Below, piece after piece: positions 6,690 to 50,782 of a stretch of 64,000 nucleotides of DNA. The stretch is taken from NCBI GenBank assembly GCA_964427175.1, contig CAYRTP010000001.1, positions 7,836 through 71,835 on the forward strand, given 5' to 3'. Position 1 is the stretch's first letter. Each line of letters begins with the position of its first letter. Source of the stretch: an uncultured Clostridium sp. (GTDB lineage Bacteria; Bacillota; Clostridia; Oscillospirales; CAG-272). The notes beneath the pieces were generated by a model, which saw only the letters and a list, made by a program, of their open reading frames with translations, searched no databases and was not told the DNA's origin. Both the position numbers and the translations under genes were made by a program.

Positions 6690-6728
6690 AAAAAGACAGA
6701 GGGTGCCAATCGGCACCCTCTGCTTTTT
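6690..6728. terminator. Bidirectional rho-independent terminator (MaoC gene / original tRNA trailer)
   Basis: Stem CAGAGGGTGCC (6697-6707) / GGCACCCTCTG (6712-6722) flanked by an A-run and a T-run. Confidence 0.7.
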
Positions 6729-6753
6729 GGAGCGAGTAACGGGAATCGAACCC
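6725..6753. repeat. attL core (orphan copy of the tRNA-Gly 3' end)
   Basis: TTTTGGAGCGAGTAACGGGAATCGAACCC is identical to 50706-50734. Confidence 0.85.
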
Positions 6754-6820: not shown

Positions 6821-7897
6821 TCAATCGAGAACCCGCCGAAAATACTCCTCCAGCTGGTCCTCCACGGAGGTCCTCTTGCTGGCCATGATATGGCCGTAAA
6901 CCTGGTCGATCATAGCCTCCGTCTCGTGACCGACGTAATCCGCGATATACTTTTTAGGCACGTTCAGTGCCAACATAACCGACACCGTGTAGTGTCTCAA
7001 ATCATGAAACCGATACTCCGGAAACTTGTGCTTCCGAATCAAATTATAAAACCGATTGCTGATCAGATCGGGTCGGATCGTAATATACCCACCCAGATCT
7101 GCGCACGCTTCTTTTTTCTTCGCCAGCGCGGCAGCGACGTAGGGAATCATGCGGATCACGCGGGTACCGGCGACCGTCTTGGTGGTCTTCTGCACGAACT
7201 CGCGCTCGTCATCCAGGACGAGTGCCTGGTCGATGGTGATGGTCCCCGCCTTGAAATCCACCCGCTCCCAGGTCAGAGCGGCGATCTCGGAGCGGCGCAT
7301 CCCGCAGCAGGCGGCCAGGATCACGGGAACCTCCAGCTCAGTGTCGCGTGTCAACTCAAATAGACGCTTGATGTCCTCCTCGGTCGGGATCACGATGGAG
7401 GGCTTTTGCTTTTGGGGGAGCGTGGTGTGCAACACAAAGTCAGGCCGATGCACCTGCATGACGGCCACCAGAAACCCGTGAATATTCCGCACCGTCTTGG
7501 GAGACAGACTCAAAGCCTCCTGATTGATGGCCACCTGCACCTGCTCGCGAGTGATGTCCTTGACCAGCATGGGACGGAGCTCACGCAGATAGTTGCGAAC
7601 GATCGAGCGATAAGAACGCACCGTAGAAGGCGATAGAATGGCACTCTTTGACTCGATGTATGTCTCCATTGCCACCTGGAGGGTCAAACGGTCCGCGGGC
7701 CGTACAGCGCGTTCTTGACGCTTCTCGGCCTTGAACTGCGCGGCGCGGAGGAGAACTTGGTTGTAGTCATAGTCGGTGATAGACTCATAGTGCCGTTTGC
7801 CATCCGCGTCGGTGTGCGAGTAGACCTGGGTGTTCCATGCCCCGCTTGGGAGCTGCTTGATCGCCGGAAGCCCGGCGGCCTTTTTCTTTTTAGCCAT
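6821..7897 (-). CDS. int: Tyrosine-type site-specific integrase
   Basis: 358 aa. The C-terminal catalytic region carries R...HDLRH...GH..Y (CGMRRSE, HDLRHYTVS, VGHETEAMIDQVYGH). It lies 68 nt inside attL. Confidence 0.9.
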   Translation of the reverse strand: MAKKKKAAGLPAIKQLPSGAWNTQVYSHTDADGKRHYESITDYDYNQVLLRAAQFKAEKRQERAVRPADRLTLQVAMETYIESKSAILSPSTVRSYRSIVRNYLRELRPMLVKDITREQVQVAINQEALSLSPKTVRNIHGFLVAVMQVHRPDFVLHTTLPQKQKPSIVIPTEEDIKRLFELTRDTELEVPVILAACCGMRRSEIAALTWERVDFKAGTITIDQALVLDDEREFVQKTTKTVAGTRVIRMIPYVAAALAKKKEACADLGGYITIRPDLISNRFYNLIRKHKFPEYRFHDLRHYTVSVMLALNVPKKYIADYVGHETEAMIDQVYGHIMASKRTSVEDQLEEYFRRVLD

Positions 7898-7985: not shown

Positions 7986-8264
7986 TCATTTCCGCTTGCG
8001 CTCGCGCTCCTCGGCCCGGTCGATGAGCTGACGGACGTACTCGGGGGTGTAGTCCTCGGGCTTGATGCCGAGGAGGCGGGCAAAGCGGCGTTTGTCCACG
8101 ATGCGGAGAGCCAGACGGAGGATCGCGTCCTCGTCGGCCTTGGATAGCTTGCCGTCGCGCTCCAGCTCGGCCAGGGGCATGACCAGCTCGCTGCGGGCCT
8201 CGGCCACGCTCTCGTCGAGGGAGAGGGCCAGGTCGTCGATGGTCTTGGGGTTGTACTTGCTCAT
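7986..8264 (-). CDS. Hypothetical 92-aa protein upstream of int (possible recombination directionality or regulatory factor)
   Basis: Native-GC ORF with RBS AAGGAGG. No motif recognised. The function is a guess from position only. Confidence 0.5.
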   Translation of the reverse strand: MSKYNPKTIDDLALSLDESVAEARSELVMPLAELERDGKLSKADEDAILRLALRIVDKRRFARLLGIKPEDYTPEYVRQLIDRAEERERKRK

Positions 8265-8382: not shown

Positions 8383-10767
8383 TTATGTTTGATTATCTAT
8401 TAAAGACCCAATAAGTTGATTGGGCCGGTTCGCCCAGTAATTGCAATCGCAAACAATAACAATTTCTTTTATCGCACGAGAAATAGCTGTGTTCAAAACA
8501 GTACGGCCAATAGCTATTTTACTATTGCAAAAAAACGGTTGACTATCATCTACGGTGCTAATTATTACGGTTGTCCATTCAAGGCCCTGAGCTGCATGAA
8601 CCGTTTGTATAAGAGAGGGTGAGACATGCTTGCTTAGTTCTTTTTGCAAAAGAGATCGCTGTTTTCTATAAGGGGTCAAAATAACATAATCTTTTGGCAT
8701 GTTGGCATTAAGATATTCTTTTATTGCAACTGCTTCGTCCACACTCATACGTGAAGATGAAGACAGAACCTGATGAGGTGCATTGATTACAGTGATTTTT
8801 GTTGGGATATTGGTGCCAGAAAAACCGTTATGATAAACATGTTTATCCAAAATGGCCGCTAAATTATCACCGAATCGAAATGTATTTTTCAAAAAGGAAA
8901 TAGCAACATCTGGGTTCTTGATATCTCCACAACAAGCGTAGGTTTGAAACATTTCGTCAACGGTACAAGTAAATGAATCTGCAAAATATAGCGATGATTG
9001 TGCCCATAGAAAAACTGGCATATAATCGTAGTTTCTTTGTATTAAGTTGTCGTTCATCTCGCAAACAGGAGGAAGTTGTTTGTGATCACCACAAAGCGTG
9101 ATCGGGATTCGCAACGAGAAAACAACACCTGCCTTTATCAAAGGTAACAATGCGGCCTCGTCAATAAATGCGTGGTCAACTTGAATGGGAATATTTTGTG
9201 GATCTATAGTTAAAAACAGTGTTTCATAGTGAGCAAACAAATAATCTATTGTGCAAGCGTAGATTTTTTTCTGACTTTGTTGTTGCTGAACCATTTTACC
9301 AATATCAGCCAATTGATTTTCGTAATATTGTATATCTTCTTCAATCTGTTTTCTGTTTCGCCCATTTTTCAATTCTTCTAATTTGGAATTGAGTGCAGCG
9401 GATGACATTGACAAGGAAACATAGGACCCCAAAAATTGAATGGAAACAGATTTTGCTTTTTCAAGGTATTCTGATGCACTAACCTGTAATGAGTTTATAA
9501 TGTCAGATAAGTGTTGTTCCTGTTGTGTCGCTTCAGAATATTCTTCGTTAATTTGCAGTATCAAAGTTTCAATTTGATCAACCTTAGTCTGCGCCTCCGA
9601 TACATCACGCAAATACTTACTTTTGTAATCTTTATCGAAGCGCATTTTAGTATGATGTTTCATAGAAATATTGCGTTGCTTTAATTTGCTCAATATAACG
9701 TTTTCGTTGCGTAACAAAATTTTGGATTCTGTCAAACGATTATTTATATCAGTAAGCCGAGGCTGCAATGCAGACAAATCGTCTTTATGCTTGGCGGCCT
9801 CTGCGAGTTGTTTTTCATAATGCTGTTTATATTCAAAAAAACTCTCGATTTTTTGTATCTGCAAATCAACTTCTGAACAAGACAGCAAAAACTCCTGACA
9901 GCTTTTTAATTTTTCTTCATACGATTTTCGCATTTTCTCCATTGCCGATCCGCAACACACCTGCGGATAATTACGTTCAAAAGGAATTGTGGGAATTCCA
10001 TACCGAATAACCTGAGTGACGGGTTCATTGTGATCTTCCATTACGCTCAGTATGGTTTGCAAAGAATTATCCAACGCATTATTAGTCGGAGCGACGATCA
10101 GAACCTTTTTGTCGTGACATATTAAATTTAAAACTGCGTGGGCTAATGTCCATGTTTTACCTGTGCCAGGAGGCCCCCAAATATAGCTGACAGGGGAGGA
10201 AAGAATAGAGCGAACCGCTTGTTTTTGAGGATCAGACAGGGAAGAAAGCAGAGATTCATTTTCAAGGCAATCAGAAAAAGGGTGAGGAGGAGAAGATATT
10301 TTATCTCCATAGGCATCATACCATGAGCCAACTTTGTCAATTAAAAATGTCATGTCAGAAATAAAGCTAACCCTTTCGGGATGTAAAGTTAAGTACGTTT
10401 GAAAAACATCCAGTAAGGTATTATCGTTTACAATAATTGTTAGTTGTCGCTCCTGATGCAAATAAGTTGAGAACGTAACAAATTCATGTTTGATATAATG
10501 CTTTGAAATATCATCATAATAAGATTCAGGCAACATATATTCACTGTCAAGGTTAATGCAAAGTGCTTCCGAATCAAACGAATGAAAAGAAGTGCGATGC
10601 TCCAAATGCAGAACAAAAGACCGAGGTAAATAGCCTTTGGTTATAGCTGTAACTCTTGTGACAATTTGACTCTTTCCATTTTGTTGACAATATTTCTTGT
10701 ATATATTACAGCTATCTATCGCTTCAAATACAAACTCTTGTACACTTGACATGACAAACACCTTCAC
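8383..10767 (-). CDS. SF1B (Upf1/DNA2-like, AAA_11/AAA_12-type) helicase with an unassigned N-terminal domain
   Basis: 794 aa. Motifs GPPGTGKT (aa 198-205), VAPTNNA, FIDEAA (aa 534-539), CGDHKQLPPV, TPYRKQ, TVHAAQGLEW and NTAISRA. AT-rich. GTG start at 10767 or ATG at 10752. Confidence 0.85.
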   Translation of the reverse strand: MKVFVMSSVQEFVFEAIDSCNIYKKYCQQNGKSQIVTRVTAITKGYLPRSFVLHLEHRTSFHSFDSEALCINLDSEYMLPESYYDDISKHYIKHEFVTFSTYLHQERQLTIIVNDNTLLDVFQTYLTLHPERVSFISDMTFLIDKVGSWYDAYGDKISSPPHPFSDCLENESLLSSLSDPQKQAVRSILSSPVSYIWGPPGTGKTWTLAHAVLNLICHDKKVLIVAPTNNALDNSLQTILSVMEDHNEPVTQVIRYGIPTIPFERNYPQVCCGSAMEKMRKSYEEKLKSCQEFLLSCSEVDLQIQKIESFFEYKQHYEKQLAEAAKHKDDLSALQPRLTDINNRLTESKILLRNENVILSKLKQRNISMKHHTKMRFDKDYKSKYLRDVSEAQTKVDQIETLILQINEEYSEATQQEQHLSDIINSLQVSASEYLEKAKSVSIQFLGSYVSLSMSSAALNSKLEELKNGRNRKQIEEDIQYYENQLADIGKMVQQQQSQKKIYACTIDYLFAHYETLFLTIDPQNIPIQVDHAFIDEAALLPLIKAGVVFSLRIPITLCGDHKQLPPVCEMNDNLIQRNYDYMPVFLWAQSSLYFADSFTCTVDEMFQTYACCGDIKNPDVAISFLKNTFRFGDNLAAILDKHVYHNGFSGTNIPTKITVINAPHQVLSSSSRMSVDEAVAIKEYLNANMPKDYVILTPYRKQRSLLQKELSKHVSPSLIQTVHAAQGLEWTTVIISTVDDSQPFFCNSKIAIGRTVLNTAISRAIKEIVIVCDCNYWANRPNQLIGSLIDNQT

Positions 10768-11037
10768 TTAATAATATTTTGGGGGACTACTTTTTTCCGC
10801 CTCCGCCTCGCACTCCTCCACCGGCTTATTGATAAACAAGTGGCTCCGCCGGATGTGTTCCAGCTCGTGCTTATAGGCGCGGCGTTGTTCCTCGAGGGAC
10901 AAATTCTCGTTGACGTAGATGTTGAAGTCACCGTTGTCATCCACTACGGTGACGGCGTTGACGCGGGCGGGGAGCGGTGCGAGGCGCAGGATCTCATGTT
11001 CCATCCCCGCCGTTCTTCTATGGGACAGAGAAAACAA
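10768..11037 (-). CDS. Small ImmA/IrrE-like HExxH metallopeptidase-motif protein
   Basis: 89 aa with the segment FNIYVNENLSLEEQRRAYKHELEHIRRSH. Native GC. TTG start at 11037 or ATG at 11004. Its stop abuts the helicase start. Confidence 0.6.
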   Translation of the reverse strand: MFSLSHRRTAGMEHEILRLAPLPARVNAVTVVDDNGDFNIYVNENLSLEEQRRAYKHELEHIRRSHLFINKPVEECEAEAEKSSPPKYY

Positions 11038-11042
11038 AAGAT

Positions 11043-12086
11043 TTAGCGTTCAAACGGATAATAATAATCAAACAATTTAAAATCAGAACTATCATATTCG
11101 TACATCCAAGCAAGATCATCGTTATCTGTTCCCCCTATTTCTTCCAAACGAGAAACGGAGAAAAAATCTTCAAACATTTCGACAAGCGCATCGCAGTAGT
11201 CAATTATCAGATTAAAAAGATGATCGACATAAAATCGTTGAGCCTCCGAAGGAGACTTAATTGAAACATTTTCCCTATTTGCATATATTTTCTCGTATTT
11301 AGTCGCCGAAAAGAAAACTGGGAGGAAAATCATATCAAAAAAATAGTTGCACCAAGTGGTTATAGTTTGCTCATCAAAATCAGTTCGGCCATAAGTAGTT
11401 GTTACCCATTCTTGAAAAGGCGGTGGATCTTCGTCAAAATATATTTCAAAAAAATATATATTTTGCATTAACTTAATATCTGAATTAAGGTTTGTCGCAT
11501 CTAAATTTTCATTAAATCCGCAAAGTAAAAACAATTTTTCCAATGATTTGTTTACAGACCTTGATACTTCTTGAAGTTGTCCATTGTATTTAAATGAGAT
11601 GTGAGTAGCTACACGCAACAGAAGGGCCGCTAAATTAACAGAAAAATGAGGAGAGACATCGAAACCGGGGAAATCTTCTAAAGTAATTTTTAAAATCTCA
11701 GTTGCAGTTTCATGCCATTTTTTTGTAATGCAAACAACATACTCAAGGTACGGGGCCTTTATACTATTAACATAATCGTCGAAGTTGTCTTTAACAAAAC
11801 GAGCTTTGGGAGGGTTAAATGAGCGATCATAAATAAACCGCTTGTTTCTTTCAATTTCGCACAACTCCTGCTCTTTCCTTTTTATTTCCTCTCTTAATTG
11901 AGCCTCAATCTCGCTGTGTCTCTTTTCCACTTCTGCAATTTCATCTCGCTTTTGCTGTTCTCGTGCTTCAGCAGCTTCGCGCTCCATACGTTCTTTTTCT
12001 GATACATAGTTGGAATACCAAATTGCAAAATAACATACTCCTAGAACAAGTGCTATACCAAAAACAATCTTCAAAAAAGTGTCCAT
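11043..12086 (-). CDS. Hypothetical membrane-anchored coiled-coil protein
   Basis: 347 aa. N-terminal TM helix (IVFGIALVLGVCYFAIW), an E/R/K-rich coiled coil, and an acidic/aromatic C-terminal domain. AT-rich. Confidence 0.7.
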   Translation of the reverse strand: MDTFLKIVFGIALVLGVCYFAIWYSNYVSEKERMEREAAEAREQQKRDEIAEVEKRHSEIEAQLREEIKRKEQELCEIERNKRFIYDRSFNPPKARFVKDNFDDYVNSIKAPYLEYVVCITKKWHETATEILKITLEDFPGFDVSPHFSVNLAALLLRVATHISFKYNGQLQEVSRSVNKSLEKLFLLCGFNENLDATNLNSDIKLMQNIYFFEIYFDEDPPPFQEWVTTTYGRTDFDEQTITTWCNYFFDMIFLPVFFSATKYEKIYANRENVSIKSPSEAQRFYVDHLFNLIIDYCDALVEMFEDFFSVSRLEEIGGTDNDDLAWMYEYDSSDFKLFDYYYPFER

Positions 12087-12119: not shown

Positions 12120-12752
12120 TCAAAAATTCTTGATCAACTTCCGCACCACTCCGACCACTCTCACCCGCATAATATCCGCCCCGGTGAACCGCATGGGCTT
12201 ATAGTACGGGTTGATGGACTGGAGCTCCAGCCAGCCGTCGCCGTACACCACGCGCTTAACCAGGCCCTCGTCGCCGTCCAGCAGGACTACGGCGATGGTG
12301 CCGCTGTCCACGGAGTCCTGCTTGTGGACCTGGATGATGTCGCCGTCCTCGATCTTGGGGTACATGCTGTCTCCCTTGACCTTGATGCAGATGGTTTCGG
12401 CGGCCTCGCCCGGGTCGGTGAAGTACAGGGGGGTATAATCCACGATGCAGTCGTCGGCGATGGCACCGAAGCCCGCGGACACGGTCTCAAAGACCGGGAT
12501 CTCGTAGACCCGGCTCATATCCAGGAATACTGCGTTCGGCTTGATGTCGGGCGTTTTTTTCTGCTCGTTTCCCAACAGGTAATCGACGGTTACTCCGAAG
12601 TAGTCGGCGATTTTTTGAAGAGTAGTTCCATTTGGAATGGTGCCGTTCTTCCATTTCGTAATGCTTCCGGTAGCGATGGACAGTTCTTTCACCACAGGGA
12701 GCGGTTTCGTGCCTTTCTCAAGACACAGGCTATAAAATCTTTCCCAAAACAT
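12120..12752 (-). CDS. CI/LexA-type phage repressor (XRE HTH + S24 peptidase)
   Basis: N-terminal HTH (KELSIATGSITKWKNG). C-terminal S24 motifs KGDSMYP and VVGVVRKL (Ser/Lys dyad). Confidence 0.9.
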   Translation of the reverse strand: MFWERFYSLCLEKGTKPLPVVKELSIATGSITKWKNGTIPNGTTLQKIADYFGVTVDYLLGNEQKKTPDIKPNAVFLDMSRVYEIPVFETVSAGFGAIADDCIVDYTPLYFTDPGEAAETICIKVKGDSMYPKIEDGDIIQVHKQDSVDSGTIAVVLLDGDEGLVKRVVYGDGWLELQSINPYYKPMRFTGADIMRVRVVGVVRKLIKNF

Positions 12753-12835: not shown

Positions 12836-12864
12836 TTGACAATTCACCAAAGTGGAGTTATAAT
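12836..12864 (+). promoter_or_regulatory. Consensus early promoter divergent from the repressor
   Basis: TTGACA (12836-12841), 17 nt, TATAAT (12859-12864). The GTGAAT...ATTCAC dyad overlaps the -35 element. Confidence 0.7.
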
Positions 12865-33397: not shown

Positions 33398-36300
33398 ATG
33401 GCCAAAACCTACATCAACGCATCGAAAAACGCCGGTCTCAAAACAAACCGCATCACCCGTAAGAAGAAAAAGGAGTTCATCAACGCCTCCGCCCGCGATG
33501 AGAAGAACCGAGGAGGCCTGCTCGAAGGAGCAGGCTACCTCCTGGGGAGCGGTGCCCTGGGCGTTGCGGGCGTGGTCGAGGGCGCAGGCGACATTCTTGC
33601 CGCAGGTTCAGACCTTCTCCGCGGCGACACCGCCATGGCAAAATATCGTTTCATGGACAACGATACCGCCGAGGCCAGGGAAAAGCTGACCGAGTGGTAC
33701 AACCCCAACAAAGCCATGCAGATCGCCGGTGACGTAACCTCCGGCATCGGTAACAGCCTGGTCTTTATGCTCCCCTACGTCGGTCCCTACCTGGCCGCCG
33801 CAGGCTATACGGGTATGGGCATCTCCAACGCCGCCGAAAAGACCGGCGACGTGGGCTTGAAGGAGATCGGCTACGGTGTGGTATCCGGCGGTATGGAGTT
33901 CGCCATGGACAAGCTCACGGGCGGCATCGGAAAGGCCGGTAAAAACATCGGCTCTGCCGTAGCCCGCAAGCTGGGCCGAGAGGCGGGAGAGTCGGTGGCC
34001 ATGGCCACCGGAAAGACCGCCGCCTCCAAGCTGGCAGGCGCGATCACGGGCCGCGGCCTGGTGGGTACCGTCCTGAAGGAATCCCTCAAGGGCGCGGCAG
34101 GAGAGGCAGCCGAGGAATCCTTGACCGAGATCATCGACCCCGCCCTGCTCAAGCTGTTCAACATCGACGAAAACGCCGATTGGGACTGGAAGCAGATCGC
34201 CTACGCAGGTCTGATCGGCGGTCTCTCGGGCGGTCTTATGACCGCGGGGCCCGCCGCCATCAACTACAAATCCTCGGTCAAGGCAGGCCGTTCCATCCGC
34301 GAGAACGGCCAGGCCGAGACCATGGTCAACTACGCCAAGACCACAGCCCTCAAAGCCGCTACGCGAAAGCAGGAGCGGTACAAGGCCGCCGCTGATCAGA
34401 AGATCACCCCGAAAGAGGGGGCAACCGTTATCGGCAAGACCTACACCGGCGCGAAAAACCTGGTCAACAGCGTCCGGAACAGCCGCGCCGAAAGCCGCGT
34501 GAAGGCCATGGCCGAGAAGGTAGACAAGAACGTCGAGGCCTACAAGGCGTATATGTCCAACCCCAAAAAGACCGAGAAGGAGCTGGAGGTATCCGACGCA
34601 ATCCTCGGTGAGCTTCGCGGCAACCTGTTCCTGCTGGAAAACGCCAGCCTGCTGGAGGTCTACGAGGAGGCCGTCCTGGAGCTGGACGAGGAGGACAAGC
34701 AGAACCTTGTAAACGACCTCAACACCCGTGCCAAGGAGCAGAAGGGCAAGTCCGACTATACCGTAGCCGACCTCGAAGCGAATATCGACGATATCCTCAC
34801 CTCCATCGCCGCGAAGTATATGACCGACGATCAGTACGGAGAACTCAATAAACTTTTCCAAAAGCGGAAAAACGCTACTGCCGAGACCCAACCCGCCGAA
34901 ACAACGCCCCAGGTCGCCGTACAGCCCGCCCAGGGCGCAGAAGTGGCCGAGGCCGAGGAAGTGACCGCCCAAAGCAAAAAGCCCGTCACGCCGCGATTTG
35001 CGGGCAACGGGAAGGTCAAGGTGGAAGGTGGCCGCAATTGGAAGGATCTGACTATTACAGGAGATCAAAACGCCGCCTATGCCGCCTACAAGGCCGCCGA
35101 GATCCTCGCCCCCAACCTGGGAGCTGACATCGAGATCCACGAGAGCCTGGACAAGGACGGTCGCCAGGTAAACGGCTACTTTGATCAGCGGACCAATACC
35201 ATCCACATCAACATCAACGCCAAGCGCGGGACGAGCGGGAAGCAGATCGCCCTCTATACCCTGGGACACGAGGCCACCCACTACGTCAAGCAGTGGTCGG
35301 GTGAGAAATACGAAGCCCTGGCCGACTTCGTCATGAACAAGCTGGGCGGTGACACCGAGACCCTGATCACCGATAAGATCGCCACCCTGCGCACCATATC
35401 GGACTATCAGACCCTGTCCGACGAGGTCCTCCGCGACCTCGCCCGCGAGGAGGTTGTAGCCGACGGAATGGAGCTGATCCTCACCGACGGCAAGGTCCTG
35501 GACGAGCTGGCCAAGCAAGACCGTTCCCTGTGGGAGACCATCAAGGAATGGATATCCGACATCATTGCCAAGATCAAGAAGGCCTACGGCGATCTCAACC
35601 AGGCCTCCAAGACCGCGCAGACCCTGCGAGAGACCCTGGACACCCTGGACGAGGTGGAACGGCTGTTTACCGAGAGCGTGAAGGAGGCGGGGGAGAGAGT
35701 TAGGACGGCGGAGCCTGTAACCAGCATGAATGAAGAAAACGTGCAGGTTAGCGGGGAAAAGTTGTCTGTGGAGCCCAATTATGCCAGTAATATTGAGCAA
35801 TGGAACGCCGATGAGCGGCCAGAAAATGAGTCATTCATTTTAGGCATGACAGGTGATGTGCTACAAGGATTAGGGGCGATTGAAAGCGAAATTTTCATAA
35901 ACGGAGATAAAATCAAGACCATTTTGAGCGATCATCCTGAATTGACATTGGATGAAATCAAGCGGATTCCACAAATTTTAGATGATCCAGTTTTGATTTT
36001 AAAAAGCCGAAACGTAGGTCGCACCGGCAAAATGAATAGCCGCATGGTTATTTTTGGTGCTGTAAGAGCTAAAAACGGCCAGCCTGTTATGTCCATTTTG
36101 GATCTTCGTCCTGTTGAAAATAATTTCGTAATTGCGGATATGCAAAAAGTGACGAGTGCGTATACAAAGACGACAAACCCGGTAGAGTTTGTCAAGGAGA
36201 GTTCTGTGGTATATGCAGACAAAAAAAGAACCGCCTCGTTACTTCGGTCAATAGGCTTCCAAATGCCTATCGAGCTGAACAAGAGCGGTTACATAGGTAG

Positions 36301-39300
36301 TATAGCATACAAAGAGCGAAAAGTCAATATATACGGTGAAAAATTTGAAGATGTTTTTTCGGAAGGACAAATAAAATATTCCATTTCCGAAGAAACTCCC
36401 CCCGACCCCGATCCCGACACCACCCAATCAGAGGACAAGCCGAAAGCCGAAAAGGATCAACAGACCCTGGAGGAAGAAAACCGCGAACTGACCGAAAAGC
36501 TGCACAAAATGCAGTACGCTATGGTACAGAGGGCCATCAAGGCCGGAGAGATCTCCGCCAAGATGAAGCGGCAAGCCATATCCAAGGGTGCCGACGTAGT
36601 GCTGGACAGCATCGGCGTGACTGACGGCAGTAATCGACGCGAGCTGGTGCGCCGCATGGAAGAAATCTACGCCCACATGGCCGCCAAGAACGGCATATCC
36701 TATGAGCAAGCCTTTGAGGAGGCGGAGGACGTAGCCGACTGGCTGATATCCCGTCAACCCCTGGTGCGTGACGCAGCTATGGCCGAGCAGGCCCAGGAAA
36801 TCCTGAAAACCCTGCACAACTCCAAGATCAGATTGACCTTTGGTCAAAAGGGCGAGGTTTCCCAGCAAATGGGTTCCACCGAGGATTATCGAAAAGCCAT
36901 GTTTGGAAAGGTAACTGTCGCTGATCAGGCCGGAACGCCCCTGGATGTGCAGTGGGCCGAATGGTCAGATATGTACCCGGAGGTGTTTGCCGACGATGTA
37001 ACCGAGACAGATATGCCCACGAGGCTGTTGGAAATCTACGAAAACCTTATGTCACAGCGTGATTACGTGGAAATCATAGACGAGTACATCGACGCGGAGA
37101 CCTTGACTGCTACCATCTTTGAACAGATCGGTCATATCGTCTGGGAGGCCGAAACATCCTGGGTCAACGATACAACCATCCTGGCCAACGCGCTGGAGGG
37201 GGCCGTCACCTCCGAGCAGGAGTGGAAAATCGTCCAGGAGTACAAAAACCGCGCGGGAGAGCTGGAGCAAACCAATGCAAGAATTTCAGCCCTCCGACGT
37301 GAGGCAGCAGCTGTAAACAGAGAAATCGGCTCTCTGCTGCAAAAGAAAAAGGAAAGCGGCAACAAGGAGCCGTGGGTACTGACCGCGCTGGATGAATCAT
37401 ACAAGCGTAAGGGAGAGTTGATTGACGAACTCGACCACCTGGTGAACACCGTCCAAAAAGCGAGTGAAAGACTTCTGTCTCTCCGTGCTGCAAAGCCCTT
37501 GCAAAAAGCATTGGCAGAGGCGAATAAACGAGCTGACGCAATGGAAAAAAAGGCGCACAAAGCAGAGGAACAGGCAGAGAAGGCCTGGGAGTGGTCAAAG
37601 GAAACCGTCCGTGAGGTCCGAACCGAGGAACGAGAGAAGGGAAGGGAATACAAAGAATACCTCGACCGCAAAGAAGGCGAATCCCAGGAACGCGGCGAAA
37701 TCACAGCCCGTAAGCGTACCGTCATGCGGCTCCTGGGCTCACTGGAAACCAAACTCTACCACCCCACAAAAACAAACCACGTCCCCCAGGAGCTGCTTGA
37801 CCTGGCTCTGAAAACCCTCCACGTCGCCGATCCGGGCGCATTTGCCGCCAACCGCACCAATATCCGCGAGATGGGCGATCTTGCCGCAAAGATCGAGAAG
37901 CTGGAACGCAAGGCCGCAAGGACCGCCACCGAGCAGGAGCGTCTCGACAAAATGAAAAGCAAATACGAGCACCTGGAAGCCGAGACCCTGCCCCTCAAAG
38001 AGCAGGCCAAGGCCCTTCTGACCGCATTTGTCGAATATAACAAAAACGTTCCCGAGGATCAGCGATACCCCGAGGGCTTCATCAACATCATGACCGCCCG
38101 CGTCAATGAAATCGAAAACAAGCCTCTCGTTGAGATGGGCCTGCGCTCCCTGGAGGCCGTGGAGACGTTCGTCACGATGCTGAGCCATCAGATCGACACC
38201 GTGAACAACACCTTCGCCACCGAGCGGACCCTGAAGATCAGCGACCTCGGCCAAAAAGCATCCACCGAAGCCGCCGACAGTAAGCCCCTCAAGGTCCTGT
38301 CCCCCACCGGCAAGGAATGGGCAGGCATGAGCGGTATCCGAAATTTCTTCTGGAAGAACCTCAAGCCTCTCACCGTCTTCGAGGCCATCGGCTCAAAGAC
38401 CTTCGCTGACCTGTTCCAAAACGTCCTGAACGGAGAGGACACCTGGGCGCGGGATATCGTGGAGGCCCGCGAGAAGATCCTCAAGGCCCGGGAAGCCCAC
38501 GGCTACAAGGACTGGGACCTGGATGCCCGCACCGAGGTGCAGACAGGGAGCGGTCCCGTCAGCCTGAACCTGCGGGAGCGAATGGCGTTGTATGCTCTGT
38601 CCTTCCGTGAAAACGCCGAAAGCCACCTGCAAGGCGGCGGATTTGTCCTGGATCCCATGGCCACCGAGGAAACCAAGATCAAAGGCCTGTCGGTCGAAGC
38701 CCTGAAAAAGCGTCTCAACGACTCCAAGCGATACGTCATGGACAAGGAGATGCTGGGCAAGCTGGCTACGGGATTGACTGAGGAACAAAAAGCATACGTG
38801 CGGGAAATGCAGGCCTATCTTACCGAGCTGGGCAAGAAGGGTAACGAGGTATCCCGCAAGCTCTACGGAATGGACATTTTCACCGAGGAATATTACTTCC
38901 CGATGAAGGTGAGATCGGTATACCTGGATGCCCAAACAGGCAAAACGGGTGATCCCAATCTCAAAAACATGGGCATGACCAAGGAGATCGTCCCCAACGC
39001 CAAGAACCCCCTGGTTCTGCAAGGCTTCGACGAGATCATGGTGGACCATATCAACAACATGGCCACCTATCACGCCTTTGTGCTTCCCATGGAGGACCTG
39101 CGCCGTGTCCTCAACTACAAGCCGGTCAACTACAAGACCGACGAGAACGGCGACGTGATCCTGAATGATGACGGCCTCCCCGTGGCGGACAACGAAGCGG
39201 CAAAGCAGTACGACACACTCCAGGCCGTCATCGAATCCAAGTACGGACAAAAGGCCAATGCCTACATCATCCAGCTCATGCGAGACCTCAACGGCGGTGC

Positions 39301-41098
39301 CCGTCGGGACGCGGCGGCGGGGATCATCGACCGAGGCATTACAGCCTTCAAGCGGGCCTCCACTATGGCCTCCCTGTCGGTGCTGGTACAGCAGCCCACG
39401 TCCATCTTCCGCGCGGCGGCTTACATTGACCCCAAATACCTGGCCGGAACCGCCTCCATCGTGGATTTCAAGAACCACAAAAAGCTGTGGGAGCGGGTCA
39501 AGAAATACGCCCCCGTTGCCATCATCAAGGAAATGGGCGGCTATGACACAGGTGTGGGAGCCCGGACGGGCGACTATCTGAACGCCGCCGAATACGGTAA
39601 GGGCGAGCGTCTCAAAGGCTTTGCCACCGATGCAAACTACCGCGCCGAGGTCTTCGGCATGGGCGCGGCCTATGCGGACGAGATGGCCTGGATCCAAATT
39701 TTCGAGGCCTGCGTCAGCGAGCAGGCGGACAAGCTGAAGCAATCCCGCGACTCCGAGGCCGTCCTGGAAGCGGCAGGGAAGCGGTTCGAGGAGGTCGTGC
39801 GCCATACCCAGGTGTATGACTCCACCCTGACCCGTTCCGAGAATATGCGCTCCAAGGACACCGGTATGAAAATGGCCACCGCCTTCATGTCCGAGCCCAC
39901 CACCGTTGTCTCCATGATCGCGGAGGCTATCATGAAAGCCGAGCGGGGAGATGTCAAGTTCCTGCGCAACACAGCCGCCGCCGTGGGCGCGTCCATCATA
40001 GTCAACGCCCTGGCATCCTCCCTGATATACGCCATGCGCGACGACGATGAGGAGAAAACCTACGGCGAGAAATACCTGTCCAAGCTGGCCATGGAAACCG
40101 CCGCGGGATTCAACCCGCTGGAGTATTTCCCTGTATTCCGCGATTTCATGTCGTTGGTGAAGGGATATGAGGTCGAGCGGACCGATATGGCCCTGGTAGG
40201 AGACCTGCTCAACCAGGTGCAGAGCCTCTCCAGCTCCAAGAAGACCATCCCCCAAAAGGTGATCGGCGTGAGCGGTGCGGTCTCATCCTTCTTTGGATTG
40301 CCGCTGACCAATGTGGTTCGAGATGCCAACGGATTCTTACACACCGTTCTCAAGCAGACCGATACCGAGCGTATGACCGGGAAGGGTCTGTCCGTAGCGT
40401 TGATGCAGGAGTTTGACACCATTTTTAACGCCTTCGACGAGAAGACCCGCAATAGCTACCAGCTCTACCAGGCCGTGCTGGATGGCGACAACAAGCACTA
40501 TGCCAGAGTAGTCGCCCGTTACGAGAGCAGTAAAGACGCAGAACTCGCCCTGCGCCAGGCCTTGAGGGAATACGATCCCCGCATAACCGAAGCCGCCCAA
40601 GCCCGTCTCAACGGTGAACTCGACGTATACGAATCCATAGTAGACCAGATCGAGTCGGAGGGCAAGTTTGACCGCAACATCGCCATCCGCGCCATCAATA
40701 ACCAGATGACTTGGATCAAAAACAACGAAACCACAGCCACCGTCCCGCAGGCCGAGGACGCAGAGGACACACCCGAGGCTCTCTACACCGCCTCCGACCT
40801 CAACGCGGCCCTGGAACGCGGTGACTCCGAGGACTTTGAGATGCTCTACTACGTTCTGCTCACCGATAAGAAGGAGCAGGGAAAGACCGAGGCCCAGGCC
40901 CGATCCTCCATCAAATCCTCGGTCACGTCCTACTGGAAAAAGCAATACCTCGCCGCCTGGGAAGCCAATGACACCAAGGAGATCAAGCGAATCCAATCCA
41001 TCCTCCTGTCCACGGGCCTCTACGGCACCCGCAATGACGTGGCGACTACGGGTCAGGAGTGGGTAAAGGCCTACGCGGCCTCCAAAACCAAAAAGTAA
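33398..41098 (+). CDS. Giant polyvalent-type virion protein (2566 aa)
   Basis: Gly-zipper/hydrophobic N-terminus. Zincin motif LGHEATHY. A low-GC inserted domain. Long coiled coils. C-terminal hydrophobic segments. Confidence 0.85.
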   Translation: MAKTYINASKNAGLKTNRITRKKKKEFINASARDEKNRGGLLEGAGYLLGSGALGVAGVVEGAGDILAAGSDLLRGDTAMAKYRFMDNDTAEAREKLTEWYNPNKAMQIAGDVTSGIGNSLVFMLPYVGPYLAAAGYTGMGISNAAEKTGDVGLKEIGYGVVSGGMEFAMDKLTGGIGKAGKNIGSAVARKLGREAGESVAMATGKTAASKLAGAITGRGLVGTVLKESLKGAAGEAAEESLTEIIDPALLKLFNIDENADWDWKQIAYAGLIGGLSGGLMTAGPAAINYKSSVKAGRSIRENGQAETMVNYAKTTALKAATRKQERYKAAADQKITPKEGATVIGKTYTGAKNLVNSVRNSRAESRVKAMAEKVDKNVEAYKAYMSNPKKTEKELEVSDAILGELRGNLFLLENASLLEVYEEAVLELDEEDKQNLVNDLNTRAKEQKGKSDYTVADLEANIDDILTSIAAKYMTDDQYGELNKLFQKRKNATAETQPAETTPQVAVQPAQGAEVAEAEEVTAQSKKPVTPRFAGNGKVKVEGGRNWKDLTITGDQNAAYAAYKAAEILAPNLGADIEIHESLDKDGRQVNGYFDQRTNTIHININAKRGTSGKQIALYTLGHEATHYVKQWSGEKYEALADFVMNKLGGDTETLITDKIATLRTISDYQTLSDEVLRDLAREEVVADGMELILTDGKVLDELAKQDRSLWETIKEWISDIIAKIKKAYGDLNQASKTAQTLRETLDTLDEVERLFTESVKEAGERVRTAEPVTSMNEENVQVSGEKLSVEPNYASNIEQWNADERPENESFILGMTGDVLQGLGAIESEIFINGDKIKTILSDHPELTLDEIKRIPQILDDPVLILKSRNVGRTGKMNSRMVIFGAVRAKNGQPVMSILDLRPVENNFVIADMQKVTSAYTKTTNPVEFVKESSVVYADKKRTASLLRSIGFQMPIELNKSGYIGSIAYKERKVNIYGEKFEDVFSEGQIKYSISEETPPDPDPDTTQSEDKPKAEKDQQTLEEENRELTEKLHKMQYAMVQRAIKAGEISAKMKRQAISKGADVVLDSIGVTDGSNRRELVRRMEEIYAHMAAKNGISYEQAFEEAEDVADWLISRQPLVRDAAMAEQAQEILKTLHNSKIRLTFGQKGEVSQQMGSTEDYRKAMFGKVTVADQAGTPLDVQWAEWSDMYPEVFADDVTETDMPTRLLEIYENLMSQRDYVEIIDEYIDAETLTATIFEQIGHIVWEAETSWVNDTTILANALEGAVTSEQEWKIVQEYKNRAGELEQTNARISALRREAAAVNREIGSLLQKKKESGNKEPWVLTALDESYKRKGELIDELDHLVNTVQKASERLLSLRAAKPLQKALAEANKRADAMEKKAHKAEEQAEKAWEWSKETVREVRTEEREKGREYKEYLDRKEGESQERGEITARKRTVMRLLGSLETKLYHPTKTNHVPQELLDLALKTLHVADPGAFAANRTNIREMGDLAAKIEKLERKAARTATEQERLDKMKSKYEHLEAETLPLKEQAKALLTAFVEYNKNVPEDQRYPEGFINIMTARVNEIENKPLVEMGLRSLEAVETFVTMLSHQIDTVNNTFATERTLKISDLGQKASTEAADSKPLKVLSPTGKEWAGMSGIRNFFWKNLKPLTVFEAIGSKTFADLFQNVLNGEDTWARDIVEAREKILKAREAHGYKDWDLDARTEVQTGSGPVSLNLRERMALYALSFRENAESHLQGGGFVLDPMATEETKIKGLSVEALKKRLNDSKRYVMDKEMLGKLATGLTEEQKAYVREMQAYLTELGKKGNEVSRKLYGMDIFTEEYYFPMKVRSVYLDAQTGKTGDPNLKNMGMTKEIVPNAKNPLVLQGFDEIMVDHINNMATYHAFVLPMEDLRRVLNYKPVNYKTDENGDVILNDDGLPVADNEAAKQYDTLQAVIESKYGQKANAYIIQLMRDLNGGARRDAAAGIIDRGITAFKRASTMASLSVLVQQPTSIFRAAAYIDPKYLAGTASIVDFKNHKKLWERVKKYAPVAIIKEMGGYDTGVGARTGDYLNAAEYGKGERLKGFATDANYRAEVFGMGAAYADEMAWIQIFEACVSEQADKLKQSRDSEAVLEAAGKRFEEVVRHTQVYDSTLTRSENMRSKDTGMKMATAFMSEPTTVVSMIAEAIMKAERGDVKFLRNTAAAVGASIIVNALASSLIYAMRDDDEEKTYGEKYLSKLAMETAAGFNPLEYFPVFRDFMSLVKGYEVERTDMALVGDLLNQVQSLSSSKKTIPQKVIGVSGAVSSFFGLPLTNVVRDANGFLHTVLKQTDTERMTGKGLSVALMQEFDTIFNAFDEKTRNSYQLYQAVLDGDNKHYARVVARYESSKDAELALRQALREYDPRITEAAQARLNGELDVYESIVDQIESEGKFDRNIAIRAINNQMTWIKNNETTATVPQAEDAEDTPEALYTASDLNAALERGDSEDFEMLYYVLLTDKKEQGKTEAQARSSIKSSVTSYWKKQYLAAWEANDTKEIKRIQSILLSTGLYGTRNDVATTGQEWVKAYAASKTKK

Positions 41099-50705: not shown

Positions 50706-50734
50706 TTTTGGAGCGAGTAACGGGAATCGAACCC
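50706..50734. repeat. attR core (within the intact tRNA-Gly)
   Basis: Identical 29-mer to 6725-6753. Confidence 0.85.
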
Positions 50735-50782
50735 GCATAGCCAGCTTGGGAAGCTGGAGTTTTACCATTAGACTATACCCGC
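50709..50782 (-). tRNA. tRNA-Gly: tRNA-Gly (anticodon CCC)
   Basis: 74-nt cloverleaf folded by hand. Acceptor GCGGGTA/TACTCGC. Anticodon arm CCAGC-TTCCCAA-GCTGG. T-arm GCGGG-TTCGATT-CCCGT. CCA is encoded. Confidence 0.9.

Follow-up and report, generated by a model that had tools for sequence, protein, structure and literature searches.

A predicted Upf1-type helicase with a barrel head and a greatly enlarged coiled-coil arm in the repressor-integrase interval of a prophage from an uncultured Clostridium sp.

Motors of the Upf1 class move 5′→3′ on single strands, strip proteins and unwind hybrids. Upf1-like helicases carry a β-barrel, 1B, on two stalk helices just ahead of Walker A; this barrel module is placed over the nucleic-acid channel, and in Sen1/SETX the prong of subdomain 1C is needed for termination. 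In Staphylococcus, the single-gene, helicase-containing immunity protein Nhi is activated by phage SSB and reportedly carries an active nuclease domain. The anti-phage system Mokosh contains a COG1112/Upf1-like helicase and depends on the ATP site of this protein (10.1101/2022.05.11.491447). The arrangement of stalk and barrel has been restated for prokaryotic Upf1-like relatives, including CnuH of the type II/III CoCoNuT systems, which nearly always precedes CnuE, an effector with a winged helix-turn-helix (wHTH) and a nuclease, is linked to the McrBC-like CnuBC, and often has SmpB-like or RelE-like N-terminal domains (PMC10542128). Here we describe a helicase gene in a 64,000-nucleotide stretch (referred to as the window) of contig CAYRTP010000001.1 from an uncultured Clostridium sp. 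(assembly GCA_964427175.1), where it lies in the interval that separates the repressor gene of a prophage from its integrase gene. We are highly confident of its architecture, namely a Upf1-type helicase with a non-catalytic barrel head and an enlarged coiled-coil 1C, and we examine it as a candidate exclusion or defence factor.

The helicase matched Pfam AAA_11 (E 2.1e-23, 83.8 bits, cutoff 27) and AAA_12 (E 1.7e-11, 44.5 bits, cutoff 27). Its nearest solved proteins by sequence profile were IGHMBP2 (4e-35) and Upf1 (6e-28), along with ZNFX1, SETX/Sen1, Aquarius and DNA2. The AlphaFold2 model, obtained with 76 homologues as input, had a mean predicted local distance difference test (pLDDT) score of 90.3 and a predicted template-modelling score (pTM) of 0.74, and its best fold matches in PDB were SETX (2e-23), IGHMBP2 (5e-20) and Upf1, with TM-scores of 0.59–0.63 for Upf1 and IGHMBP2 when normalised to their ~600-residue cores. 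Motifs Q, I, Ia, II, III, V and VI of the Upf1-like class of superfamily 1B (SF1B) are all intact, and the motif residues named by domain in Table 1, R626 included, are invariant in 76 of the 76 homologues; all those required to bind ATP, to hydrolyse it and for coupling are among them. Judged from these matches and this conservation, the protein is an SF1B helicase of the Upf1/IGHMBP2/Sen1 class, active-looking and under purifying selection; as modelled, it would be made only of the standard parts of the class, one of which (1C) is greatly enlarged.

An earlier reading by a model, made from the letters alone (here the first-pass annotation), had placed the motifs by counting from the GTG at which the listed open reading frame (ORF) begins. 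A script returned exactly the same positions for GPPGTGKT (198–205), VAPTNNA (225–231), FIDEAA (534–539), GDHKQLPP (560–567), TPYRKQ (698–703), TVHAAQGLEW (722–731) and NTAISRA (759–765). The same annotation described an unassigned head of ~175 aa and a core into which ~225 aa of coiled coil are inserted after motif Ia and before motif II, and this layout holds family-wide. Its suggestion that the head might be a degenerate nuclease is not supported, as the head is better read as an accessory barrel and the insertion as an enlarged 1C. The structure prediction it had proposed for both parts returned a helix-barrel-helix head and an antiparallel coiled-coil insertion.

The minus-strand ORF 8383..10767 is present and has 794 codons counted from GTG. 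The most likely translation start is the ATG at 10752, five codons inside, which has a Shine-Dalgarno sequence (GAAGGTG) 6 nt on its 5′ side. The M1 column is kept in 91% of the 76 full-length homologues, and the gene called on an independent assembly of the same locus (contig L105) also encodes 789 aa. Thus, the N-terminus is not materially mis-called, and the far-downstream start that the first-pass annotation had raised as an alternative was not seen. All residue numbers below are counted from ATG 10752 and equal the GTG-based numbers minus 5.

Modelled alone, the head (aa 1–165) was still predicted with confidence (pLDDT 89.6). It starts with a helix (~3–25), followed by a six-stranded β-barrel (29–108), a helix (111–121), a strand (128–133) and a further helix (135–151), and the barrel sits 85–165 residues ahead of Walker A. 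In predicted topology and in position, not in sequence, the head appears to correspond to the stalk helices and the 1B barrel of the class and would be non-catalytic. At this level the outcome is one that the first-pass annotation had named as the end of its own proposal, namely a head that is a known non-catalytic accessory module. When the head alone was compared with PDB by Foldseek, no match was significant. The top fold matches were small six-stranded barrels (a FAD-binding domain of the ferredoxin-reductase type, the Gar1/Naf1 domain and the F1-ATPase crown), and the longest alignments, of 160–181 columns and weak, were to Upf1, Sen1 and SETX. A head-only sequence profile gave zero matches in PDB, Upf1-class 1B domains and solved nucleases included. 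For the barrels of CnuH helicases, best fold matches of the Upf1 or EF-Tu domain II type have been described (PMC10542128). The head is at full occupancy in all homologues, with 144–177 aa over the stretch that corresponds to aa 1–175. Its only positions kept at ≥88% are M1, Y18, D133, F136, L137 and Y145, and the only polar residues above 90% are Y18 and D133, the latter at 99%.

In the model, the arm (aa 270–494) leaves domain 1A in a 91-residue helix (270–360), turns at a 13-residue tip (361–373) and returns in helices of 68, 16 and 28 residues (374–441, 447–462 and 467–494), mostly at pLDDT 85–94. As the chain must come back to domain 1A, the arm is expected to be an intramolecular antiparallel coiled coil of ~13 nm. 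The hydrophobic occupancy of heptad a/d positions is 0.62–0.75, against 0.05–0.25 at the other positions; only one Pro and three Gly occur in the 225 residues, and the region matches coiled coils of myosin, SMC and Rad50 in profile searches. The insert falls between the RLG.P and TID columns of the alignment. As its C-terminal part aligns to residues 263–405 of IGHMBP2, which form 1C, it is an enlarged 1C and not a break of the core at a new site; the aligned region has ~140 residues in IGHMBP2 and 250 in the window helicase.

The arm is found in all of the 76 aligned homologues (199–292 aa), and some members of the family, such as P0011, P0168, P0172 and P0186, have still longer ones. Across the family, arm lengths group at discrete values of ~226, 248, 264 and 288 residues and are not continuous, which would be expected if the two strands of the antiparallel coiled coil can only lengthen in step. 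Within the closest clade (48–55% identical overall), the arms are 28–29% identical, compared to 62% for the barrel and 60–67% for the core. Such fast divergence would fit a coiled coil under weak constraint, and would also fit a surface that determines specificity. The tip, at 46% identity, is above the rest of the arm and may be a contact site; no zinc-hook CxxC was found in it. Around the tip (aa 355–380, window ~9613–9690) the pattern K-x-K-Q-[KR]-x-x-S-x-x-H ... M-R-x-x-x-x-Y-[RK]-x-K-Y recurs, with looser equivalents in distant members.

The window helicase has its RecA-like 1A/2A core and its motifs in common with Upf1, IGHMBP2/SMUBP-2, Sen1/SETX, ZNFX1, Aquarius and the helicase part of DNA2. 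As in the eukaryotic members of the class, motifs Ia and II are separated by a helical subdomain, and the part ahead of Walker A is predicted to hold a barrel carried on helices; unlike them, it lacks accessory domains of the CH, R3H, zinc-finger or nuclease type, and it is bacterial and prophage-borne. The closest described prokaryotic architecture, compared by description, appears to be that of CnuH, which is also Upf1-like and combines a barrel between stalk helices with a large helical insertion, containing coiled coils, that follows Walker A. However, the extra N-terminal domains of CnuH are absent from the window helicase. A CnuE-type effector (wHTH plus HEPN, PLD or Vsr) was found neither downstream of it nor fused to it, nor in homologous loci or longer variants. 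Genes for a McrB-like GTPase or McrC were found neither in the lysogeny region of the prophage nor among the 25 most frequent neighbour Pfam families (of 108 families on 106 neighbour ORFs at 16 related loci).

The best PADLOC matches of the helicase were MkoA (7.2e-30) and MkoC (2.5e-23) of Mokosh, and they cover the helicase core only (model positions 608–832 of 1112). A PLD nuclease is the defining part of Mokosh, joined in type I by a Ser/Thr kinase, and the window helicase has neither. No PLD nuclease was identified in the helicase, the integrase, the 92-, 78- and 347-aa ORFs or the repressor, and no Ser/Thr kinase, as in type I MkoA, was among the Pfam matches of the helicase even at E up to 10. 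Nhi is likewise a helicase-containing product of a single gene, and no Nhi model was among the PADLOC matches. We therefore rejected membership of the window helicase in Mokosh, in a CnuH system or in the Nhi group, since each fails on its defining effector. In SMC/Rad50/LmuB and RloC, too, the P-loop domain is interrupted between Walker A and B by a long coiled coil of antiparallel helices. The match to LmuB is weak (E 0.005) and confined to the coiled-coil region, residues 280–497, and the ATPase of SMC/Rad50/LmuB is an ABC-type head with a signature motif, whereas the window helicase is a RecA-type SF1 protein. The resemblance to these proteins, as to HelD, is one of architecture, not homology.

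The head-only profile, run against 1.84 billion representative proteins, retrieved 269 clusters at E≤1e-3, of which 118 reached E≤1e-10. Nearly all of the 150 best head matches listed were at the N-terminus of proteins of 750–820 aa, or of fragments of these. Longer variants of the family only added more coiled coil or unannotated extensions, and no recognisable effector domain was found in them. By these sequence counts, the family defined by the head appears to be small, rare and distinct, and it has no functional name in any source. The best homologue was 55% identical; the window protein itself gave no self-match because the representative of its 90% cluster is a 56-aa fragment.

Among species-representative genomes, full-length relatives are scattered over Oscillospiraceae and other Clostridia, including Faecalibacterium, Prevotellaceae, Saprospiraceae, Flavobacteriia, Verrucomicrobiota, Helicobacter and Methanomethylophilaceae archaea. 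Four metagenome-assembled genomes of archaeal gut methanogens (L025, L026, L027 and L035; Methanomethylophilaceae/Methanomassiliicoccales) carry relatives at 29–34% identity by tblastn, with E down to 3e-51. As relatives occur in archaeal gut methanogens, transfer between domains within gut communities is suggested. A tblastn search of the helicase against 50,697 GenBank phage genomes gave no match, and one against plasmids gave a single partial match to the core, in Aulosira. Scanning IMG/VR with generic P-loop patterns from the family alignment retrieved only partial, unrelated helicases; the family-specific motif III pattern retrieved three viral contigs.

The helicase gene is part of a 44-kb prophage integrated at tRNA-Gly(CCC). 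The two att sites, a 29-bp exact repeat of the 3′ end of this tRNA gene (Table 1), enclose a terminase, a portal, a ParB-like protein and a replication initiator. The leftward lysogeny genes start with the repressor, and no minus-strand terminator was predicted from there to the end of the integrase gene; a strong bidirectional terminator hairpin (6696–6723, 11–12 bp, GC-rich) follows just outside attL. From this we infer a single lysogeny operon from repressor to integrase, in which the helicase would be co-transcribed with the repressor. The promoter predicted divergently from the repressor is presumed to be the early lytic promoter. The GC content of the helicase gene is 36.8%, and 32% at third codon positions (GC3). 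The corresponding values are 35.1% and 30% for the 347-aa ORF, and 57.6% for the rest of the prophage, with GC3 of 72–81% in integrase, terminase and portal; the chromosomal flanks have 60% GC. Since the 78-aa ORF between helicase and 347-aa ORF has a native GC of 55%, the two AT-rich genes are likely separately acquired foreign cassettes.

Table 1. Position of the helicase, its predicted domains and the surrounding prophage features in the 64,000-nucleotide window
Feature	Position	Strand	Size	Description
Helicase coding sequence	8383..10752	-	789 aa	AAA_11 + AAA_12; stop codon 8383-8385; listed ORF reaches GTG 10767
Head	10258..10752	-	aa 1-165	Predicted from AlphaFold2, Foldseek and conservation
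RecA-like domain 1A, N-terminal part	9946..10257	-	aa 166-269	Q176, Walker A G193-T200, motif Ia P222-N224
Coiled-coil arm	9271..9945	-	aa 270-494	At the position of subdomain 1C; predicted from AlphaFold2, heptads and profile matches
Domain 1A, C-terminal part	9058..9270	-	aa 495-565	Motif II D531-E532, motif III G555-D556...Q559
Domain 2A	8386..9057	-	aa 566-789	R626, motif V Q722-G723-E725, motif VI T755/S758/R759
CI/LexA-like repressor	12120..12752	-		HTH_3 + Peptidase_S24 (7e-24), phrog_4 1e-37; first leftward lysogeny gene
347-aa ORF	11043..12086	-	347 aa	N-terminal transmembrane helix, charged E/K/R coiled coil, aromatic-rich C-terminal domain
78-aa ORF	10768..11004	-	78 aa	HELEH (HExxH); Peptidase_M78 E 0.012 (below cutoff), phrog_20936 3.4e-8
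92-aa ORF	7986..8264	-	92 aa	Between helicase and integrase; no family matches
Tyrosine integrase	6821..7897	-		Phage_integrase 8.9e-12
Predicted sigma-70 promoter	12836..12864	+		TTGACA-17-TATAAT, 12-of-12 consensus; divergent from repressor
attL	6725-6753	.	29 bp	Exact copy of the tRNA-Gly 3′ end
tRNA-Gly(CCC) with attR	50706..50782	-		tRNA 50709-50782, attR 50706-50734; right prophage end

The order repressor, helicase and Tyr or Ser recombinase on one strand was identified in at least nine other temperate elements, at which the genes of the slot have tiny gaps or overlapping stop and start codons. We obtained the identities of the helicases to that of the window by tblastn or BLASTP at each locus, and located recombinases and partners with phmmer seeds. 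In L001, a helix-turn-helix (HTH) gene and a M78/ImmA gene are followed by the helicase (55% identical) and a Tyr integrase. L004 has an HTH gene, the helicase (52%), then a further HTH gene and a Tyr integrase, and L008/L009 have the same arrangement with a serine recombinase (helicase 49%). A small HTH gene, the helicase (32%) and a Tyr integrase make up L006/L007; an S24-type or HTH repressor precedes helicase (29–36%) and Tyr integrase in L012, L029 and L033; and in L013 and L100 the helicase (~31%) lies between an HTH gene and a serine recombinase. The GC contrast is repeated in the close clade (L001, L004 and L008), with helicases of 36–40% in phage DNA of 52–56% GC, and L105 repeats the gene arrangement of the window exactly.

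Phages with an integrase 69–91% identical to that of the window and with the same early genes carry other cargo in the slot between repressor and integrase. They were found by a protein-database search with the integrase; integrase scans of viral and metagenome contigs gave nothing close. In L107, with an integrase 91% identical, the slot holds ORFs of 71 and 202 aa and a HicA/HicB toxin-antitoxin pair (L107:5816-6466); in L108 it holds a 398-aa ORF and an HTH gene, and in L109 and L110 short ORFs, of 253 and 157 aa. In this phage lineage, the interval between repressor and integrase is thus a hotspot for cargo and, as the sister phages carry other genes there, the helicase is dispensable cargo in a variable slot.

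We put the probability that the biological role of the helicase is exclusion or defence at roughly 0.5. In its favour, Mokosh shows that helicases of this class can act against phages, and two distant relatives of the window helicase lie near defence genes, one beside Hachiman HamB (Neptunitalea, L014) and the other 1.5 kb from a giant PDC-S37/Hhe-like gene of 1965 aa (Methanomassiliicoccales, L035). In lambda, rexA-rexB lie downstream of cI on the same strand and are expressed in the lysogen. The window offers a positional analogue, with an accessory gene after the repressor in a slot that varies between related phages; unlike RexAB, a two-protein membrane-depolarising system, the helicase is an unrelated soluble motor protein. 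Since this cargo sits in the repressor-integrase slot, it is probably transcribed with the repressor in the lysogen, like rexAB with cI. We infer a lysogen-expressed, helicase-only factor encoded by a single gene, with a secure architecture and a more conditional function. Produced in the lysogen, it would act on an incoming phage or a competing element, load on single-stranded DNA or RNA of the invader and translocate along the strand at the cost of ATP, presumably 5′→3′ and on a substrate that is likewise presumed. Replication, recombination or transcription intermediates of the invader would be dismantled, or exposed to host nucleases; this is the simplest mechanism, as motors of the class strip proteins and unwind hybrids. 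The fast-evolving arm may serve in dimerisation or in recognition of a target or partner.

Several observations weigh against a role in exclusion or defence. No anti-phage model covers the whole helicase, the PADLOC matches being to its core. Every characterised defence system with a Upf1-like helicase has a nuclease or other effector, and here none was found within the helicase, among its neighbours or in longer family variants. Outside Clostridia, the relatives mostly have ordinary neighbours with none conserved, and a recognised defence gene lies within 3 kb at only 2 of the 16 loci. The transcription with the repressor is read from consensus scans only. Finally, family members 27–55% identical keep one slot in many phages, which could equally mean a conserved role in lysogeny.

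Perhaps the helicase serves the lysogeny maintenance, excision, induction or replication of its own phage, as an accessory motor of the repressor/ImmA/integrase module. Its position right after the repressor and before the recombinase, often with overlapping codons and kept down to 27% helicase identity, would agree with that, as would L001, where it directly follows an ImmR/ImmA-like pair. We nevertheless consider it unlikely, because the close relatives of the phage do without the helicase and hold unrelated cargo instead, its GC and GC3 are strongly foreign, and it is combined freely with repressors of three types and recombinases of two classes. In addition, the phage encodes a replication initiator and a ParB of its own at another place, and the relatives in Bacteroidota, Verrucomicrobiota, Helicobacter and archaea are outside prophage lysogeny modules. 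Defence might instead be the work of two genes, with the membrane/coiled-coil protein of 347 aa as effector or sensor, perhaps pairing with the arm of the helicase. Both genes are low in GC (35–37% in a phage of 58%), near each other and on one strand, both products contain coiled-coil sequence, and pairing of a Upf1-like helicase with its effector through coiled coils has been proposed for CnuH and CnuE (PMC10542128). This is improbable: the native-GC ORF between the two points to separate insertions, the 347-aa protein has no family match in Pfam, PADLOC or PHROGs, and phmmer and the gene tables showed no homologue of it in any of the at least nine other repressor-helicase-recombinase loci (L001, L004, L006, L008, L012, L013, L029, L033 and L100). 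We rejected the two-gene system on this last ground, as the partner is not found at the other helicase loci.

A nuclease-helicase of the Nhi/DNA2 type, with a degenerate or novel nuclease as its head, would share with Nhi and DNA2 an extra N-terminal domain ahead of an AAA_11/AAA_12 helicase. DNA2 is among the fold and sequence matches, but through its helicase part only, and the conserved aspartate D133 is the one head residue that could be called for it. In the model this residue lies where a strand passes into a helix and the chain leaves the head for domain 1A; thus, a structural role for it is likely. The first-pass annotation had pointed to the acidic/Lys patches LDSEYML (73–79 when counted from the GTG) and YYDDISKHYIKHEF (83–96 in the same count) as a possible degenerate nuclease site. 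These are variable or deleted in homologues, with partial deletions of both in those from Chryseobacterium and L006. It had also been unable to assign a PD-(D/E)xK or HNH motif, which agrees with the lack of any conserved D/E...K or H-N-H set across the 76 homologues. The head is predicted to be a β-barrel between helices, no nuclease fold was among the 50 best PDB fold matches listed by Foldseek, and the head had no sequence match to a solved nuclease. We rejected a nuclease head on these grounds, and regard this explanation as very improbable. The enlarged 1C prong could, in a manner like Sen1/SETX or HelD, engage RNA polymerase and either end the transcription of an invader or silence the lytic genes of the prophage. 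SETX/Sen1 is the best structural match of the model, the arm replaces exactly the 1C prong element, the gene lies inside a transcription-control module, and HelD (6wvk), an SF1 helicase whose coiled-coil arms are bound to RNA polymerase, is at rank 49 of the fold matches. The scores of SETX, Upf1 and IGHMBP2 are alike, however, reflecting the common core; the HelD match is weak and via the RecA domains, and the sequence has no sign of RNA polymerase binding, nor can a preference for RNA or DNA be read from it. We therefore hold such a role to be doubtful at best.

If the helicase does act in exclusion or defence, temperate phages of gut Clostridia would be exchanging, as a cassette, a compact Upf1-like helicase that has no effector, and prokaryotic immunity would gain a helicase-only mode. 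The protein would also be a simple system, in bacteria, for the question of how Upf1-, Sen1- and ZNFX1-type motors recognise foreign nucleic-acid complexes and take them apart. In a more daring form, which we consider a long shot, the immunity expressed from the prophage would use the 13-nm prong to strip polymerase or replisome off invading nucleic acid, with the arm setting specificity; it would then be an equivalent, in bacteria, of termination of the Sen1/SETX kind or of antiviral surveillance of the ZNFX1/Upf1 kind. Even if a role in defence fails, the model-based reading of the head as the accessory barrel of the class and not a nuclease, and of the split core as an enlarged 1C, would answer the question raised by the first-pass annotation. 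The class and its fold were already known, as was the notion of an inserted coiled coil. New are the rare family with its sequence-orphan head and much enlarged 1C arm, the lack of an effector, and the recurrent home between repressor and integrase in phages of gut Clostridia.

Some neighbouring genes of the helicase also deserve a short description. The 78-aa ORF directly upstream of it, called as a gene on L105 as well, resembles ImmA/IrrE (M78) proteins in a short form, and may be a miniature or truncated anti-repressor protease of the ImmA type or what is left of such a gene. Such an ImmA-like ORF beside a self-cleaving S24 repressor is an odd combination. The 347-aa ORF could itself encode an exclusion or abortive-infection protein. 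The 92-aa ORF adjoins the integrase in L105, L106 and L107, and versions of 95–97 aa occur in L109 and L110; as it accompanies the integrase in related phages, it is possibly an excision or directionality factor. A nucleotide search of the window between 6 and 20 kb against GenBank phages gave no match. The late region contains an ORF of 2566 aa on the plus strand (33398–41098), which may encode a very large tape-measure, tail or injected protein, and then an 891-aa ORF with a weak tail-fibre match.

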